42,847 nt of DNA from the IMG/VR virus record IMGVR_UViG_3300045988_015629. One strand, written 5' to 3'. The translations under genes were made by a program, and so were the position numbers. Shown here piece after piece: positions 32,493-40,464 of the stretch. The notes below the pieces were generated by a model. It was not told where the DNA came from, ran no database searches, and was given only the letters and a program-made list of their open reading frames with translations. Numbering within the stretch: the first letter of the stretch is position 1; each line of letters starts with the position of its first letter. Origin of the DNA: a virus (Duplodnaviria; Heunggongvirae; Uroviricota; Caudoviricetes).

Positions 32493-34780
32493 TATTTAAA
32501 CCCCGGCGCATTTCTTGTGGCTTTGCGGGCCTTGCTAATCTTGCTGTTGCTGTTCTGCAAAGAGGCAGCCACCTGCTCCTCGATGATGATTCGCAAACGG
32601 CCTTCATCATCTTGTTCGGTGGATACGTTGCCGATCTGAGAACTTGTGTTGTTTACGATAGTAACATTAGACGGGCCGGAAGAAGACCCGTTTTGCCCCA
32701 TAATTTCTTTCATCTGCTGTGCTGTGCGAACACGCGATGCACCCGCGGGCATGATAACTTCTGGTTTACCGCGTTCAGCGATAGTAGAAGCCTGCCCGGC
32801 GGATAACTGCCCACCCTGTTCACGTGCGGACCGGATAGCGGAAATCTGCGCCATACCTGCACCAACGGCAGCGGCAGCGGCTACAGGGGCTAGGAAGGGG
32901 CCAACAACGGGGATAGCAGCCGTTGACTTGTACGCTTCAATGGCTGCGGTGTATGTGGCGATAGTGGCCTGCACAATAGCGAATGCCTTATACGCACCAG
33001 AAGCCTCGCCCAATGCGGACCCGATGTTTGAAGCCATATTACCAAAGGCGGTTGCCGTTGCATCGGCACGTTTGGTTGCGTATTGCTCGTTGATGGCGTT
33101 AAGAGCGGCCTGATACTGCTTCTCGCTAATCAAACCCTGCTCGCGGTACTTATCCGCTACCGCCAGTTTCTGCTGTTCCTGGATGTCGAGAAGCTCAAGC
33201 TCAGTAGCGTTCTGACCCATAATCTGAGCCATGAAGTCGTCACCTTTCTGCTGCTTTTCCTGGGCTTCTTTCTGGCGTTTATCCAGTTCATCTTGTCGTT
33301 TTTGCCCGGCTTCGAGGACGATAGCTGTTTTAGCTTGTTCATATTCTTTCAGGGACAACGCGCCCTGGCTGTAGAACTCTTTTGCCTTAGCCAGTTTCTG
33401 CTGTTCCTGCGCGTCGATAGCCTTTAACTCGTCGTTGTTCTGACGGGCCAAAGTGTCGAGGTAATCTTGCGCCTGATTCCGCAATTGCTCTGCTTTCTTG
33501 GCGGCGGCTTTTGCTGCTTTATCGTCGGTTGTCCCCACCCCACCAGTTCCGCCCTTTTTATTAACAAGGCTGGCTAAGTCAATTTCTTGCTTCTTACGCT
33601 CGTCGTACTGCTTGCGCTGTTCCTCAATTTCTTTCTTACGCTGCTTAGACCTGTCGGTAATGGCTTGGGATTCGGCCTCTGCACGTTTTATACTGGCGTC
33701 GTATGCGGCATCAGCCTCTGCAGTCAGTTTTTTAAATGTGAGCGCCGACGTTTTGCTCGGGTCAAACACATCAGCAAGGGTCTGGCCTAACGCTACCGCG
33801 TAGTCGTCAATGCGCTGGAACCACGCAATAACCTCGTGGAATGTCTGCTGGATATCCGGCAACCACTCACGGATGGCATCCGGTATATCCCCCAGCGAGT
33901 CGGACATATCAACGGATTTGTCCTCGGTATCGAATGCCAGGTCGTTCAAGGCGTCAGAAATAAACTTGAACGACTCATTGAACAGTGTCACCCAATCCTG
34001 GAGCGTGGCGGAGATCTCATTGGACGCGATGGCGTCGGTGAGTGCGGTGATAGCATCTTCCGCTGTTGCCGCTTGTTCGCCTACCGCGTCGCCAAAACCG
34101 GATTGCGCTACCGCAAGAACAAGACCATCGAAGGAGTCCGCCAGGCTAGATAACTGACCATCTAAGGTCTTCGAGCGCGTCTCCATCGCTCCGGCGAAAT
34201 CAGTGTTACCGATATTTAGCAGGTATTTCTGAATCTCTTCGGAGTTCTTTTTAACCGTGGTCGTTACGCCACGGAACGTAAACGAAACTGTATCCGCCTG
34301 TTGGGAAGACTTGATACCGAACTCTTTTAAGCGCTCAAATTCAAATGTACTGGCGTCGGCAACTGCCTCAATCATTTGGTTAAGGTCTTTGCCCATAGCT
34401 GCGGCGGTGTTGCCGTAGGATATTAACGCCTCTTTGCTGGGGTTAAGACCTAGCGCCACGAGCTTGGTAAACCCCTCTACCGCCTGATTGAGGCCATACG
34501 GAGTTTCTTTTGCGAACTGTTGCAGGACGCTGAATGCCTTAGCAGCGTTCTCGGCGCTCCCGGTCATTGTGATGAGGCCGGAGTTCAGCTTATCGAAGTT
34601 GCGCTGGGAGTCCACCAGCGCACTGAACACCTGTTTGGCAGTTTCCAGACTGACAACGGCAGCGGCGGCGGCCCCCGCGGCTTTGGTAAGCCCGTTCAGT
34701 TGTGATGTGGTTTTATCGACGCCGGTCGATGATACTCGTACGATCAAGCTAGCGGTATCAGCCATGATTTCTACCTTCAA
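32492..34780 (-). CDS. tail tape measure protein
   Basis: 762 aa, predicted coiled-coil A/Q/K/E-rich repeats, preceded by a chaperone pair. Confidence 0.75.
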   Translation of the reverse strand: MKVEIMADTASLIVRVSSTGVDKTTSQLNGLTKAAGAAAAAVVSLETAKQVFSALVDSQRNFDKLNSGLITMTGSAENAAKAFSVLQQFAKETPYGLNQAVEGFTKLVALGLNPSKEALISYGNTAAAMGKDLNQMIEAVADASTFEFERLKEFGIKSSQQADTVSFTFRGVTTTVKKNSEEIQKYLLNIGNTDFAGAMETRSKTLDGQLSSLADSFDGLVLAVAQSGFGDAVGEQAATAEDAITALTDAIASNEISATLQDWVTLFNESFKFISDALNDLAFDTEDKSVDMSDSLGDIPDAIREWLPDIQQTFHEVIAWFQRIDDYAVALGQTLADVFDPSKTSALTFKKLTAEADAAYDASIKRAEAESQAITDRSKQRKKEIEEQRKQYDERKKQEIDLASLVNKKGGTGGVGTTDDKAAKAAAKKAEQLRNQAQDYLDTLARQNNDELKAIDAQEQQKLAKAKEFYSQGALSLKEYEQAKTAIVLEAGQKRQDELDKRQKEAQEKQQKGDDFMAQIMGQNATELELLDIQEQQKLAVADKYREQGLISEKQYQAALNAINEQYATKRADATATAFGNMASNIGSALGEASGAYKAFAIVQATIATYTAAIEAYKSTAAIPVVGPFLAPVAAAAAVGAGMAQISAIRSAREQGGQLSAGQASTIAERGKPEVIMPAGASRVRTAQQMKEIMGQNGSSSGPSNVTIVNNTSSQIGNVSTEQDDEGRLRIIIEEQVAASLQNSNSKISKARKATRNAPGFK

Positions 34781-35090
34781 AGATTGCTTCTAAGCCCATG
34801 ATAATGTCTATCTCGAACAGGCTAAGCTGTTTTTGCGTAACATCGAGATAGGCTTTCAGGTCTTGCCACGTAACGGATTCTCTTGCGAACAATACTACAG
34901 CGTCCTCGCGCACGTGTCGCGTAAACTTAATGTCGCAGTACGTCTCGAAGGTGGATATAAAAAGGGGCGGGCATTCTGGCCCACCCCGTCGCGCTGCACG
35001 TTTTTTCTTATCGATTACACCCATCGCGATAAGCGCCTGTTCGTGTCCGTCGGCTATAGAATCAAACTCTCTGATTTTATGCTTATCCAC
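34758..35090 (-). CDS. tail assembly chaperone T-like segment (possible -1 frameshift extension of the upstream chaperone)
   Basis: This frame is open from 35147, overlapping the end of the 35123..35539 ORF in the -1 frame; no ATG, track start is GTG. Confidence 0.4.
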   Translation of the reverse strand: MDKHKIREFDSIADGHEQALIAMGVIDKKKRAARRGGPECPPLFISTFETYCDIKFTRHVREDAVVLFARESVTWQDLKAYLDVTQKQLSLFEIDIIMGLEAIFEGRNHG

Positions 35091-35122
35091 AAACTCATAG
35101 GTGGCGAACCTGTACAGCGCGT

Positions 35123-35539
35123 CTACTTTTCCTGTAATGCTTTGCGCTCAGCGTTATGGAACGCTGCTACCTGTGTGCCTAATGCCTTGAACTGGTCCAG
35201 CAATTTGTTAAATGCTTCTTTAGAGAAAGGCTCATCAAAGCTCCAGCCGTTTACGACTTCTGCCGCGAGTTGCCGGTTGAGGTCTTCCGCCAGTTCGTTA
35301 ATAGCCAGGTTATATTCAGTATAGTCGCCGGATTCTTTGGCGGCTTTTTCCAGTTCTTCGAAACGCGCCAACCCGCGACGGTACGCAATAATGAAAGCAC
35401 GCCCCGCTTTAACGGCGACATCCGCATCGGGACTTACAACGTTAAGCCATTCACCGGAGTCTTCGCCGTTTGGCAGCAGAATGGGCATCTTCTTGCCTAC
35501 CAGTGCTTTCTCTTCGAAATAAAAATCAGAAAGTTTCAT
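35123..35539 (-). CDS. tail assembly chaperone (lambda G-like, inferred)
   Basis: Acidic 138-aa protein immediately upstream of the tape measure gene. Confidence 0.5.
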   Translation of the reverse strand: MKLSDFYFEEKALVGKKMPILLPNGEDSGEWLNVVSPDADVAVKAGRAFIIAYRRGLARFEELEKAAKESGDYTEYNLAINELAEDLNRQLAAEVVNGWSFDEPFSKEAFNKLLDQFKALGTQVAAFHNAERKALQEK

Positions 35540-35647
35540 TCTTTAATCCTTTGGTTAAGAGGTTACAGGTTAACGATAAATGCGCCAGACGGGAACCACC
35601 CGCTTTTCGTGTGCGACACTAGGCGCAAACTTATTCTATCACATTAC

Positions 35648-35690
35648 TTGCACACCCCAATATAATAGGGTACTATTCACTTACACCAAC
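35648..35690. promoter_or_regulatory. conserved 36-bp promoter element, divergent (plus-strand TTGCAC-N17-TACTAT for the island; minus-strand promoter for the chaperone/tape-measure operon)
   Basis: Reverse complement is about 33/36 identical to 13744-13779. Confidence 0.55.
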
Positions 35691-35691
35691 A

Positions 35692-35898
35692 ATGAAGGGG
35701 TTTAAAATGTCCAGTTTACCAGTTTCCTTAATTCTGTTTGCACTGCTCGCTTATTTCGCGCCTTTCCTGGTTGCGTACTTCCGTAACCATAAAGCGAAGT
35801 TAGCGATATTCATGGCTAATCTGTTTCTTGGTTGGGTTCTGCTGCCGTGGGTATTTATCTTAATCTGGGCGTGCAACTCGAATGTCAAAGAGAAGTGA
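35692..35898 (+). CDS. small membrane protein (2 TM helices)
   Basis: Two hydrophobic helices; RBS GAAGGGG before the second ATG at 35707. Confidence 0.55.
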   Translation: MKGFKMSSLPVSLILFALLAYFAPFLVAYFRNHKAKLAIFMANLFLGWVLLPWVFILIWACNSNVKEK

Positions 35899-35935
35899 GC
35901 TAGTATAGGACAAATCCTAAACACGAGGAATAAGC

Positions 35936-37066
35936 ATGGCCAGGAAGAAAATAACCGACGAACAGTTACAGGAAGAATTGAACGCCGGTATGAAGAATAT
36001 CGACATCGCCCGTAAATACGGCATCTCCGACCGCGTTATTCGTATCCGTAAAGCGAAGCTGGCTAAGAAAGGTGTAGGCCACGGGCGTGACGTTAGTTAC
36101 CTTGTACCGGACGGCTACAAGATTAAAGGAACGTCATCACTGGTGGATGAGTTTGGCAACACCAAGTTGCAATGGGTTAAGACCGACACCGATGCCGAAC
36201 GTCAGGTTGAATTGATGAAAGCCGTAATCGAAGGCATGAAGTCGGAGATTACACCAGTTGCACCTGTTAAAGCCGTTCGCGCCAAACGAGACGACAAGCT
36301 ACTCAACCTTTACACTGTGTCTGATTTCCATCTCGGTATGCTGGCCTGGGCTGACGAGAGCGGCGACGACTGGGACATGAAGATTGCGGAAGACCTGTTC
36401 TCCCGCTGGTTCGACGCAGCGTTCCAGAAAGCACCGGATGCCGGAACAGGAGTTATTAATCTGCTGGGCGACCTTGCGCATTTCGATAGTCTGGACGCCG
36501 TTACACCTGCCAGTGGTCATGTTCTTGACGCTGACACCCGCTATCAGAAACTTGTACGCTACATGATTCGTATGGTCCGCCGTGTCATTGATATGGCTCT
36601 CGTTAAACATAAAAATGTTCGCTTGCTTATCGTGCAAGGTAACCACGACGAAAGCGGAATGATTTGGTTAGCTGAGATGTTTAGTACGCTGTACGACAAT
36701 GAGCCGCGTGTGTTCGTCGATACGTCGCCGGATGTTTACAAGATGGTGCAACACGGCAAAACGACGCTGTTCTTCCATCATGGGCATAAAGCACGATTCG
36801 ACGCTATCGAACCGGTTATGATCGCCAAGTTCCGCAAAGCGTTCGGCGAGAGTGTTTACAGCTACGCCCACGTGGGTCACCTGCACCACCAAAAGATTGT
36901 AGAAAGCCGTAACATGATTGTTGAGCAACACCGCACTCTCGCGGCTAAAGATGCATATGCCTCCCGCGGTGGGTGGATGTCGGGCCGCAGTGCAAACGTA
37001 ATTACTTATAGCGCCGAATATGGCGAGGTCGCACGTTTAACTATTTCACCGGAGATGCTTGGATGA
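35936..37066 (+). CDS. calcineurin-like metallophosphoesterase with N-terminal HTH domain
   Basis: MPP motifs SDFHLG, LLGDLAHFD, VQGNHDE, FHHGHK, HVGHLHH; N-terminal 40 aa resemble a helix-turn-helix. Confidence 0.75.
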   Translation: MARKKITDEQLQEELNAGMKNIDIARKYGISDRVIRIRKAKLAKKGVGHGRDVSYLVPDGYKIKGTSSLVDEFGNTKLQWVKTDTDAERQVELMKAVIEGMKSEITPVAPVKAVRAKRDDKLLNLYTVSDFHLGMLAWADESGDDWDMKIAEDLFSRWFDAAFQKAPDAGTGVINLLGDLAHFDSLDAVTPASGHVLDADTRYQKLVRYMIRMVRRVIDMALVKHKNVRLLIVQGNHDESGMIWLAEMFSTLYDNEPRVFVDTSPDVYKMVQHGKTTLFFHHGHKARFDAIEPVMIAKFRKAFGESVYSYAHVGHLHHQKIVESRNMIVEQHRTLAAKDAYASRGGWMSGRSANVITYSAEYGEVARLTISPEMLG

Positions 37067-37548
37067 AAGATATTGTGATTTTCGATTTAGACGGGACATT
37101 GGCAGATGGTACTCATCGTTTACACCTGCTGCCGAAAGATAACTACGGCGAAACCTGGGCGTGGAAACCATTTAACATGGCGTGCAAAGACGATGCACCC
37201 ATTAAAGATAACATCGAACTGTGTAACGCCCTTAATCGTCGCTATGCCGTTATTATCTTAACAGGCCGTAGTGATGACGCGGAAAAAGAAACCAGAATGT
37301 GGTTGCAGCGCCACCGCGTCGAATTTTATCAGTTAATCATGCGCAGCAAACACGACAACAGAAAAGACATCGTAATTAAAGAAGAGGTGTTGCGTGCTAT
37401 TGGGCCGGAGAGAATCTTGTGTGCATTCGACGACTCTCCAGCGGTAATAAAGCATTTCCGCGAACTCGGCATAACCACTCACGCAGTTACTGAATACGAC
37501 TGTAACGGGAACTCTACACACTTAAAACCACATGGGAGTGATAAATAA
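37063..37548 (+). CDS. HAD-superfamily phosphatase
   Basis: Motif I FDLDGTL, motif II ILTGR, later K and FDDS acidic motifs. Confidence 0.75.
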   Translation: MKDIVIFDLDGTLADGTHRLHLLPKDNYGETWAWKPFNMACKDDAPIKDNIELCNALNRRYAVIILTGRSDDAEKETRMWLQRHRVEFYQLIMRSKHDNRKDIVIKEEVLRAIGPERILCAFDDSPAVIKHFRELGITTHAVTEYDCNGNSTHLKPHGSDK

Positions 37549-38102
37549 TGGCTAAGGTAATTATTCTTAATGGTCCTGCGGGCTGCGGGAAAGACACACT
37601 TGCTAGGGCGCTGGTAGAAATGGGCTTTGCGAAGGGTGTCGCCAGTTTCAAGAATCCGATGTTCAATATTGCTATGGCTGCGTTAGGCCAGGATGCTTAC
37701 CGCGAGTTTCTCGACGGCTACGACGACCGGGCGCGGAAAGAAAAGCCAGAGGGTTTCCTTAACGGGTTGTCTCGGCGTCAGTTCATGATTGCCATTTCCG
37801 AGCAATTCATTAAACCGGTGTTCGGTGATGATTATTTCGGTAAGTATCTTGCCGGAAACTTGCCCGACGGCGACGAAGTTTTTGTGGTGTCTGATGGCGG
37901 GTTCGCCAGCGAAGTAGCCCCTATCGTTGCCGCGGGGCATGATGTGAGAATCGTCCGCTTGCACAGAGACGGCCATACGTTTGAAGGGGACAGCCGCGGT
38001 TACCTGTACGATATTGATGGTGTAAAAGATTATGACACCTACATCATACCGGGTTACGTTAAATCGAACGCTATAGGCATTGCTTTAAGATTAGGTTTGT
38101 AA
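37548..38102 (+). CDS. P-loop nucleotide/polynucleotide kinase (dNMP-kinase-like)
   Basis: N-terminal Walker A VIILNGPAGCGKDT; the GKDT variant is reminiscent of phage dNMP kinases. Confidence 0.7.
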   Translation: MAKVIILNGPAGCGKDTLARALVEMGFAKGVASFKNPMFNIAMAALGQDAYREFLDGYDDRARKEKPEGFLNGLSRRQFMIAISEQFIKPVFGDDYFGKYLAGNLPDGDEVFVVSDGGFASEVAPIVAAGHDVRIVRLHRDGHTFEGDSRGYLYDIDGVKDYDTYIIPGYVKSNAIGIALRLGL

Positions 38103-38133
38103 GAAAAAGGCCCCAAACGGGGCCTTAGTTTTA
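38103..38133. terminator. bidirectional rho-independent terminator at the island/major-tail convergence
   Basis: GGCCCCAAACGGGGCC hairpin flanked by AAGAAAAA and TTAGTTTTA; same stem as the 25576-25608 terminator. Confidence 0.75.
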
Positions 38134-39303
38134 TGCGTATGTGATACGCTGAATAACAATAGACGACTGGTACTGGTTGCCAGTAGCCTGGCCTTCAATA
38201 GACTGAGTGATTGACTCAGGTCCTCCAATCTCAGGTGTAACCGCCGTAAGTTCTGCACGTTTCAAACTGAAAGACATAGCCCCATTTACCCCAGCCAGAA
38301 TAGAGTTAATCTCCACCTGCTGCTCGTTGATAAACTTCTGAATCATCGCCATGTCGTACAGCTTACCGGAGATGGAGAAGGTGTTAGCTGCTCGGCTACG
38401 CTCCACAAACGCTACGTTAGTGTTGCCGAGTTCGAACTGTGCGGACGCGCTGTTGTCGTTGGTGATGGTCAGGCTGTCGCAACGCAACGGCGTAGAACCG
38501 TCGAACACAGAAACATCGACCGAGGAGAATGGCTCGTCACCAAACGTAACAGAGGAGAAATCAGAACCAGACGGCTGCGTGGTGAGAATCTCCTGACTGC
38601 GACCGATGAACGGGAAGCTGCCAGTTACCATAGCGTTAACAGCCTGTTCGATGGTAAAACCAGAAACTTCCACGCCTTTGGTTAGTGTGTACGCGTCAGT
38701 CCCGCCGCACTGGCCTTTGTACCAGGTGAGAATAGAGAACGTCTTGCACTGGCTTCCCGTTTCCAGTTTATCCCCTGTCTTAGCGGCGGTAGTTACTGTC
38801 TCTGTGGTCAGGGTATGCTGGATACCCGCCCCGGTCACTACCAGCGCCTCTACTGCAGTTACGATAAACGGTTTTGCGTTGTCACCGGTTAAGTCGGTAA
38901 ACGCAATCAGGTCGCCCACTTCAACGCCGTCAGAAATAAAGCTACCTTCGGCACGGGTAAAGGTCTTGCCTGCAGGCGCGACGGTAATTGATAGCCTGGT
39001 CAGAGAACTACCGGATTGCCATGTAGAGCCTAAAGCACCCGCCAGCCAGTCGTCCTGGCTTTTCGAGCTAAGCTCAATAGCGTATTCTCCGCTAACCTGC
39101 TTGTTACCGGTGCGGATTGACGTAGTTTCACGGCTGCCGTCCAGTTCGTTGGAGGTCAGCGTGTCGCGGGTAATGGCAGGAACGCCACCTGTGTTACGCA
39201 ATGGCGACCAGACCGGGTTAGTCGGTGTTACGCCAGGGGTAGTTTCTGCCACATAGAATTGCGCAGTATTCGCGCCCTTAAAAGGAGTTGTAGCCATATT
39301 CAC
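38131..39303 (-). CDS. major tail (tube) protein, putative
   Basis: 390-aa protein at the end of the head-tail joining cluster and upstream of the chaperones. Confidence 0.5.
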   Translation of the reverse strand: MNMATTPFKGANTAQFYVAETTPGVTPTNPVWSPLRNTGGVPAITRDTLTSNELDGSRETTSIRTGNKQVSGEYAIELSSKSQDDWLAGALGSTWQSGSSLTRLSITVAPAGKTFTRAEGSFISDGVEVGDLIAFTDLTGDNAKPFIVTAVEALVVTGAGIQHTLTTETVTTAAKTGDKLETGSQCKTFSILTWYKGQCGGTDAYTLTKGVEVSGFTIEQAVNAMVTGSFPFIGRSQEILTTQPSGSDFSSVTFGDEPFSSVDVSVFDGSTPLRCDSLTITNDNSASAQFELGNTNVAFVERSRAANTFSISGKLYDMAMIQKFINEQQVEINSILAGVNGAMSFSLKRAELTAVTPEIGGPESITQSIEGQATGNQYQSSIVIQRITYA

Positions 39304-39716
39304 AGCCTCTTGGTGAATGCAATAAAGTTAATTGACAATGGTCGTTTGGCCCATCCGTTTTCTACAATCAGCGGCCCCAGGCTAACCGATTGAACCTCGG
39401 CGCAGATGTCGTTACGAGAAAATGACTTACCTGCTTTGAATGCCGTGTTAAGTAAGTCTGCCATTTTATTGATTGGCGCGCTACCTTTCACCGATGCGTA
39501 GTTAATGTCGACCTGATAAACACCCGCGCGTTGTTCCGTGAAGAACAAATCTGCTTGCTCGGTATCCGCCAGTAACATGTAACTTGCCAGATATGGCGTA
39601 TCGGTTGACGTCGGCGCGTCGATGTTTTCAAGCGCGACCTTGATGCCGTTGGCGGTTCCGAAGGCTACCAGCGGAACATCGAACGCTTTTGTTAAGTCCT
39701 CAAAGTAGCCCATCAT
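39300..39716 (-). CDS. tail completion / tail terminator-like protein, putative
   Basis: Position immediately upstream of the major tail protein. Confidence 0.4.
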   Translation of the reverse strand: MMGYFEDLTKAFDVPLVAFGTANGIKVALENIDAPTSTDTPYLASYMLLADTEQADLFFTEQRAGVYQVDINYASVKGSAPINKMADLLNTAFKAGKSFSRNDICAEVQSVSLGPLIVENGWAKRPLSINFIAFTKRL

Positions 39717-40108
39717 TTCACCTTGTTGGCTTCTTCGTTAATGAGTTGCTGGAAGCGAGACACATTAGTCCTGACAACCCCGGCTGGCGCCTGTTGCGAC
39801 CAACCATACTCCAGCCGTTGCGCATACGGCAGATTATTTGTCAGCGTGAACTCATGCCAGTCAGCGGCTTTCAGCACGAAACTCGTAGCGTTTCCGGTTG
39901 CTGTGTTTCCTGATTTATCCGTAGCGTCCGTAATCCCGGAAGCAGGAGTACCGCCAGATGCCATCCAGTTCATACGAAAGCGGCCCGTGTCTACCGGACT
40001 CGCCTTTATAATAGCGGAAAACAGCTTGATAGACACCTGACGCATCACCTTCTCAGGGTTCTTCTTCGCCTTTTCCACGAACTTAGAGACATCGAGCGCG
40101 AAACTCAT
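39713..40108 (-). CDS. HK97 gp10-like head-tail joining protein, putative
   Basis: SPVDTGRFRMNW resembles the conserved VDTGxLRxSW motif of that family. Confidence 0.5.
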   Translation of the reverse strand: MSFALDVSKFVEKAKKNPEKVMRQVSIKLFSAIIKASPVDTGRFRMNWMASGGTPASGITDATDKSGNTATGNATSFVLKAADWHEFTLTNNLPYAQRLEYGWSQQAPAGVVRTNVSRFQQLINEEANKVK

Positions 40109-40464
40109 TTTCTCACCTGAATAAAGTACGCCACGACGTCATCGTTAACCATCTTCTTCTCAATAGCTACGATGGACCATTGCTCGCCGCCGAATTGCAC
40201 CTTGTCTTCCATCTTCGGAACGACGCTGTAATCGGCTTTAACAATCATGTCGCCAGCCTGAATCGTCGTACCGTTTACCAGTCCCGCGTTTACCGGAACC
40301 GGAACGGCCTTCAACGGCAACACTTCATCCGCAGACCAGACGTACTCACCGAGAACTTCATCCCATACTTTTGAACCAGCGCGAATCAGAGATACCGTGC
40401 TACCGAATTTGGTTAGCAGGCGCGTACCCACGCCTTGCATACGTTTACTGAAAGCGGTGCTCAT
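40105..40464 (-). CDS. head-tail connector/adaptor protein, putative
   Basis: Start moved to the ATG at 40464 with AAGAGG RBS (track ORF begins further upstream). Confidence 0.4.
   Translation of the reverse strand: MSTAFSKRMQGVGTRLLTKFGSTVSLIRAGSKVWDEVLGEYVWSADEVLPLKAVPVPVNAGLVNGTTIQAGDMIVKADYSVVPKMEDKVQFGGEQWSIVAIEKKMVNDDVVAYFIQVRK

Follow-up and report, generated by a model that had tools for sequence, protein, structure and literature searches.

Among the described systems, the frameshift that yields gpG and gpGT in phage lambda (Levin et al., 1993; Xu, Hendrix and Duda, 2004; both cited in PMC5009743) gives two tail assembly chaperones which are both absent from mature virions (PMC5009743). 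In E. coli one tRNA-Lys serves both AAA and AAG (PMC5009743), and A_AAG is there the most shift-prone tetramer, with a frequency of 5.6% when it is followed by the IS3 pseudoknot (PMC4066793). A strong pseudoknot is needed for such tetramers, which in reporter assays gave 0.147% when lacking a stimulator, compared to a background of 0.112% (PMC4066793). The pattern NNA_AAG is used by IS1222 and is also present in B. subtilis cdd (PMC5009743).

In this work the chaperone locus of a tailed phage (IMG/VR record IMGVR_UViG_3300045988_015629) was analyzed; the whole stretch of 42,847 nucleotides is referred to here as the window. Positions 34400..36000 are 100% identical to Escherichia phage K1G (GU196277 / NC_027993), which belongs to Kagunavirus, Guernseyvirinae. 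The initial annotation had proposed that a programmed -1 shift joins the two chaperone ORFs, a proposal which is now backed by comparative evidence and by the identical fusion of the K1G depositors. It is very likely that a programmed -1 frameshift at the last sense codon of G generates the 138-aa G protein together with a 260-aa G-T fusion. The G/T frameshift is real, ordinary and already annotated for K1G, and it is of a type of phage recoding that ranks among the best known; the interest which remains is in the minimal, apparently structure-free signal, in which A_AAG abuts the stop codon.

The G/T locus of K1G and its annotation

The elements of the locus, all on the minus strand, are the following.

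35123..35539, minus strand: ORF G (K1G ORF22A), the short tail assembly chaperone (138 aa), from the ATG at 35539 to the TAG at 35125..35123
35126..35132, minus strand: putative slip site G_GAA_AAG with the conserved core A_AAG at 35129..35126, codons 137/138 in 77 relatives
35123..35125, minus strand: 0-frame stop TAG, flush with the 3' side of the slip codon, TAG or TAA in 77 relatives
35148..35150, minus strand: TGA of the -1 frame, which bounds the stretch of possible shifts on its 5' side
35115..35120, minus strand: GCGCTG, encoding Ala141-Leu142 of the fusion, 5 nt 3' of AAG, a place of synonymous-site invariance
34758..35126, minus strand: T segment in the -1 frame, starting with GTA (35126..35124) and made up of 122 codons, the last one GGC, before TGA (34760..34758)
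34758..35539, minus strand: G-T fusion CDS of 260 aa with the junction ...ALQEK/VDALYRF..., a joined CDS in NC_027993
32492..34765, minus strand: tape measure gene, beginning with the ATG at 34765, which overlaps the end of T (ATGGCTGA)

On the minus strand the last codons of G read GCT GAG CGC AAA GCA TTA CAG GAA AAG TAG. As initially described, the -1 frame is open from 35147, next to the TGA at 35150..35148, which produces a sense overlap of 22 nt with the final eight codons of G. The GGAAAAG which had been pointed out within this overlap is found at 35132..35126 in the register G_GAA_AAG, and it is indeed an imperfect heptamer which does not follow X_XXY_YYZ. There is one occurrence of GGAAAAGTAG in the window, compared to 0.03 expected from shuffles. 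The +1 frame is shut after nine codons, and the TGA terminating T at 34760..34758 overlaps the tape measure ATG at 34765. The statement that the downstream ORF has no ATG start is valid at the 5' end of this ORF only: its first start-type codon is the GTG at 35090, and codon 173 of the fusion, at 35024, is an in-frame ATG.

The RefSeq record of K1G, NC_027993, contains ORF22A (35539..35123) and, as a CDS joined from two pieces, ORF22B (35539..34758); each is named "tail assembly chaperone", and both are located directly upstream of the tape measure gene. Seven candidate junction variants were built by placing the shift anywhere in the overlap, and the public protein collection holds only the one joined between K and V as above, in the K1G fusion (ADA82267.1 / YP_009168804.1) and in two close relatives. 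As this A_AAG junction is the only variant in the public databases, the depositors of K1G must have put the shift at the same GAA_AAG site. A joined CDS is present in none of six relatives fetched from GenBank; their second ORFs are listed separately with differing starts, in three records under the name "tail assembly chaperone" and otherwise as "hypothetical protein". Separate T ORFs, of 110-119 aa or 88 aa, are given by gene callers and in several GenBank records, and TTG is the annotated T start in the relatives L13 and SP-101. For the relative Shashou the genome announcement reports "no canonical slippery sequence" (PMC6776780). In the papers searched we found no experimental test of the frameshift in the phage group of K1G.

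Both parts of the fusion are recognised by chaperone profiles: the G part matches Pfam Phage_TAC_4 with 25.2 bits (cutoff 21.1), and the T part matches Phage_TAC_18 over fusion residues 171-255 with 65.5 bits (cutoff 27). PHROG 15027 (259 positions) spans the fusion, with profile positions 1-138 corresponding to G and 139-259 to T. The NCBIfam search gave no match, the PDB sequence search with the chaperone gave no meaningful relative, and the single-sequence AlphaFold model of G was too poor for use (pLDDT 57). Digestion with Glu-C would produce a junction peptide across K138-V139 of the fusion, e.g., KVDALYRFATYE.

The major tail gene (38131..39303) is split from G by a block of genes at 35707..38102. 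This block is composed of four plus strand genes, for superinfection immunity, a DNA repair exonuclease, a polynucleotide kinase and an ATP-binding protein. As the tail module is split by genes on the opposite strand, the G/T/tape measure unit probably needs its own promoter; a simple consensus scan of 35400..36000 identified none on the minus strand.

Conservation of the junction among relatives

A tblastn search with the fused protein identified 496 phage records, 490 of which had one place covering at least 80% of the query; in 59 out of the 60 listed, two pieces had to be joined to make up this place. Six diverged GenBank loci and 80 IMG/VR loci were compared, and these correspond to 77 distinct G+T sequences down to ~45% protein identity. 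The G/GT arrangement upstream of the tape measure gene, which had been recognised initially, is constant in the 86 loci.

In all 77 sequences G ends with NNA_AAG followed at once by a stop codon (TAG 54, TAA 23, TGA 0), that is, with the layout of a shifty stop, in which the slip codon is directly 5' of the 0-frame TAG or TAA. Codon 138 is always AAG and never AAA, and codon 137 is NNA in 77 out of 77 while the residue it encodes can be E, A, V, K, S or G. The presence of A before AAG irrespective of the encoded residue points to selection on the RNA and not on the protein. The heptamers found were G_GAA_AAG (n = 55), C_GCA_AAG (n = 10), G_GTA_AAG (n = 4), A_GCA_AAG (n = 3), A_AAA_AAG (n = 2) and, once each, G_TCA_AAG, G_GGA_AAG and G_GCA_AAG; just three of the 77 are canonical X_XXY_YYZ heptamers (G_GGA_AAG once and A_AAA_AAG twice), and K1G itself is non-canonical. 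The idea of lysine slippage in the absence of a perfect heptamer is borne out by the retention of A_AAG with its adjoining stop in every relative, and the comparison with homologous chaperone pairs, which had been suggested as a check, came out in its favour, with NNA_AAG, TAG or TAA and the -1 extension constant in the 77 distinct relatives.

The sense overlap between the two frames ranges from 7 to 205 nt among the relatives. Two of them have an overlap of just 7 nt (CGCAAAG, with TAA CGC AAA GTA in the -1 frame), so that a shift would there be possible only at GCA_AAG. In nearly all complete loci the -1 ORF runs on for 120-121 codons, its end overlapping the ATG of the tape measure gene (ATGGCTGA), and the +1 frame is shut after 4-20 codons in nearly all relatives. 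The chance of one in-frame NNA_AAG in an overlap of eight codons is a few percent by a rough estimate, and a single occurrence is weak evidence; it is the invariance in 77 diverged relatives which places A_AAG beyond chance.

Conservation continues past the stop codon. The sequence GCGYUG starts 5 nt past AAG, with GCG and YTG each present in 77 out of 77 (L142 is encoded by CTG or TTG). Among 53 conserved degenerate columns only K138 (AAG), V139 (GTA) and A141 (GCG) use a single codon, and the minimum of synonymous variation among well-sampled codon windows, 0.16 of expectation, is at codons 136-142. A family rule of NNA_AAG and TAR, then GTA..GCGYTG, would permit consistent annotation of the fusion.

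A separate observation regards the base after the G stop, which is A, C or T and never G (TAGA 46, TAAA 18, TAGC 8, TAAC 4, TAAT 1). The restriction of the stop to TAG or TAA, together with a next base other than G, may reflect a constraint on the termination context.

One alternative is that T has its own initiation within the -1 ORF, either at GTG 35090 or at ATG 35024, in which case its overlap with G would be incidental. K1G does possess both of these codons, and the separate T ORFs in gene calls and in several GenBank records agree with such a start. However, the first ATG, GTG or TTG past the G stop is found anywhere from +8 to +323 nt among the relatives, which means that no T start codon is conserved, and GTG 35090 has no good Shine-Dalgarno sequence. 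Furthermore the 12-34 codons before these starts show coding periodicity; the entropy by codon position for codons 143-171 in the -1 frame is 0.74/0.64/1.44, compared to 0.77/0.72/1.51 in G, and pairwise amino-acid identity from the junction to the first starts is 0.62-0.63, compared to 0.54 in the rest of T. By these measures the stretch between the junction and the first start codons of K1G is coding in the -1 frame. Independent initiation would also leave the invariant A_AAG and stop unexplained, and we regard it as very unlikely.

Termination at UAG followed by reinitiation 8 nt downstream at YUG (CTG 35117..35115 in K1G) would produce T without G, and we hold it to be less probable still. 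It would agree with a codon 142 which is always CTG or TTG after an invariant GCG, and TTG is a legitimate start, annotated as such in L13 and SP-101, but 59 of the 77 relatives, K1G included, have CTG, a very poor bacterial start codon. The T part of lambda works within the gpGT fusion (PMC5009743), which also speaks against a T made on its own. Neither the constant A before AAG nor the absence of AAA is explained by reinitiation. Slippage of the RNA polymerase on the run of A, rather than of the ribosome, could in principle generate the fusion as well, given the GGAAAAG at the site and the seven A's in two relatives (GCAAAAAAG). Most relatives have merely three to four A's (e.g., GCAAAG or GTAAAG), however, and runs of this length are shorter than those known to be prone to transcriptional slippage. 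The conserved adjacency of the stop and the wobble base of AAG point to decoding, which makes transcriptional slippage extremely improbable.

Another CDS of the K1G record is also joined: ORF14A/14B ("tail completion or Neck1"; 39713..40464, minus strand), across AGA_AAA_TGA with the junction at 40105..40112. Among 44 distinct relatives the downstream ATG is retained in nearly all, the putative slip tetramer is often C_AAA, which is non-slippery, and the form of the junction changes (ATGA, TAATG, TAG-C-ATG) with an inconstant frame relation. The retained ATG, the C_AAA and the shifting form of the junction look like those of ordinary translational coupling, and the frameshift annotated for this pair is probably wrong. 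The G/T junction is the opposite on all three counts, i.e., start retention, tetramer and frame constancy.

A minimal slip signal and the search for a stimulator

In the programmed -1 frameshift which we favour, a small share of the ribosomes translating G would step back by one nucleotide at the final sense codon. The tRNA-Lys on AAG would re-pair with the overlapping AAA, GUA (Val) would be read next, and the shifted ribosomes would read 122 further codons to give the G-T fusion beside the 138-aa G. In K1G, pairing rules would let GAA partly re-pair as GGA (G-C, G.U and A-U), so that tandem slippage is conceivable. As GCA, GUA or UCA, the preceding codon in some relatives, cannot re-pair, we infer that the mechanism common to the family is slippage of a lone tRNA-Lys. 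This slippage would probably be helped by slow decoding of the adjacent UAG or UAA, and possibly also by the GCGYUG 5 nt downstream; the sequence would fit slippage of tRNA-Lys in the P site, with the stop in the A site, as well as slippage in the A site itself. By analogy with lambda gpG and gpGT, both G and G-T may bind the tape measure protein with the T part recruiting the tail tube protein, and the frameshift rate would then set the ratio of G to G-T.

Because tetramers without a stimulator remain near background in reporters, a stimulator was sought at the K1G site. RNAalifold gave -0.33 kcal/mol with three trivial pairs for 43 sequences across 95 nt and -0.44 kcal/mol for 36 sequences across 170 nt, and neither run showed covarying pairs. 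The single fold of 96 nt of K1G had z = -0.89, and per-sequence folds of 45-70 nt in 70 sequences had a mean z of -0.1 to -0.2; longer fold windows reached a mean z of -1.3 to -1.7 as measured against mononucleotide shuffles only. The Rfam scan gave no relevant match, and 5-9 nt 3' of the slip site there was no conserved hairpin or pseudoknot in analyses which did not model pseudoknots directly. A recurrent 5-bp helix, GCUGU/ACAGC, was rejected as it had no compensatory changes and was no better than shuffles. A Shine-Dalgarno-like upstream stimulator was likewise discarded: purine-rich codons 9-19 nt upstream, seen by eye in some relatives (AAGGAG in Jersey), were inconsistent.

In most relatives a GC-rich palindrome, GGGCC-N-GAATGCCC, is present at ~34965..34986 on the minus strand, ~140 nt 3' of the slip site. 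It encodes G-P-E-C-P in the T part and might represent either a motif of the protein or a hairpin formed locally; it is too distant to act on the slip site.

The stop flush with AAG and GCGYUG are thus left as the sole conserved candidates for a stimulator. For GCGCTG at 35115..35120 neither a pairing partner nor a known role was found. It is a tentative and rather doubtful proposal that the Guernseyvirinae site represents a minimal structure-free cassette, composed of A_AAG, a UAR stop and a linear GCGYUG at 5-nt spacing which would replace the hairpin or pseudoknot as stimulator. Were this so, GCGYUG would be a 3' element of a type that has not been described before. The G/T site apparently uses a bare A_AAG without recognisable RNA structure, though reporters suggest that a strong stimulator is needed, and it is thus a compact test case for whether an adjacent stop or a short linear motif can supply stimulation.

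Comparison with described systems

As in lambda gpG/gpGT, the two ORFs of K1G immediately precede the tape measure gene, and the downstream one is in the -1 frame and without a start of its own; in both phages the shift is placed on a Lys AAG near the end of G, and the end of T overlaps the start of the tape measure gene. The G proteins are of similar size (138 aa in K1G and 140 aa in lambda), and BLASTP of K1G G against lambda gpG detected no similarity. Both phages follow one logic, in which a low-level -1 shift would set the ratio of two chaperone products. The signals differ, with lambda having the canonical G_GGA_AAG 15 nt (five sense codons) before the G stop and K1G having G_GAA_AAG flush with the stop. 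Unlike lambda, K1G has four opposite-strand genes between the major tail gene and G, so that its G/T pair is located between the major tail and tape measure genes but is not adjacent to the former.

The insertion sequence IS1222 (G_CGA_AAG) and B. subtilis cdd (A_CGA_AAG) share with K1G the A_AAG core and a 5' codon which need not re-pair (PMC5009743; PMC4066793). IS elements have a strong 3' stem-loop or pseudoknot, whereas in the K1G group no conserved structure was found and there is an adjoining stop instead. In Burkholderia phage KL1 the slip site predicted for gp18/gp19 is, as in K1G, immediately upstream of the stop of the short chaperone, and KL1 gp20 has been reported to be similar to K1G tail proteins (PMC3483164). 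The KL1 site, which is also a prediction only, differs from that of K1G in its canonical GGGAAAC before TGA, and in KL1 an extra gene separates the chaperones from the tape measure gene.

The K1G site lacks the heptamer of the canonical tandem-slippage signal, and the folding analyses found no conserved 3' structure of the kind which belongs to that signal. It has the layout, the conserved slip sequence, the lack of a conserved T start and the chaperone profiles of the G/GT class (Xu et al., 2004), and the in-frame A_AAG with a free 5' codon found across the K1G group is that of the tRNA-Lys tetramer/hexamer class.
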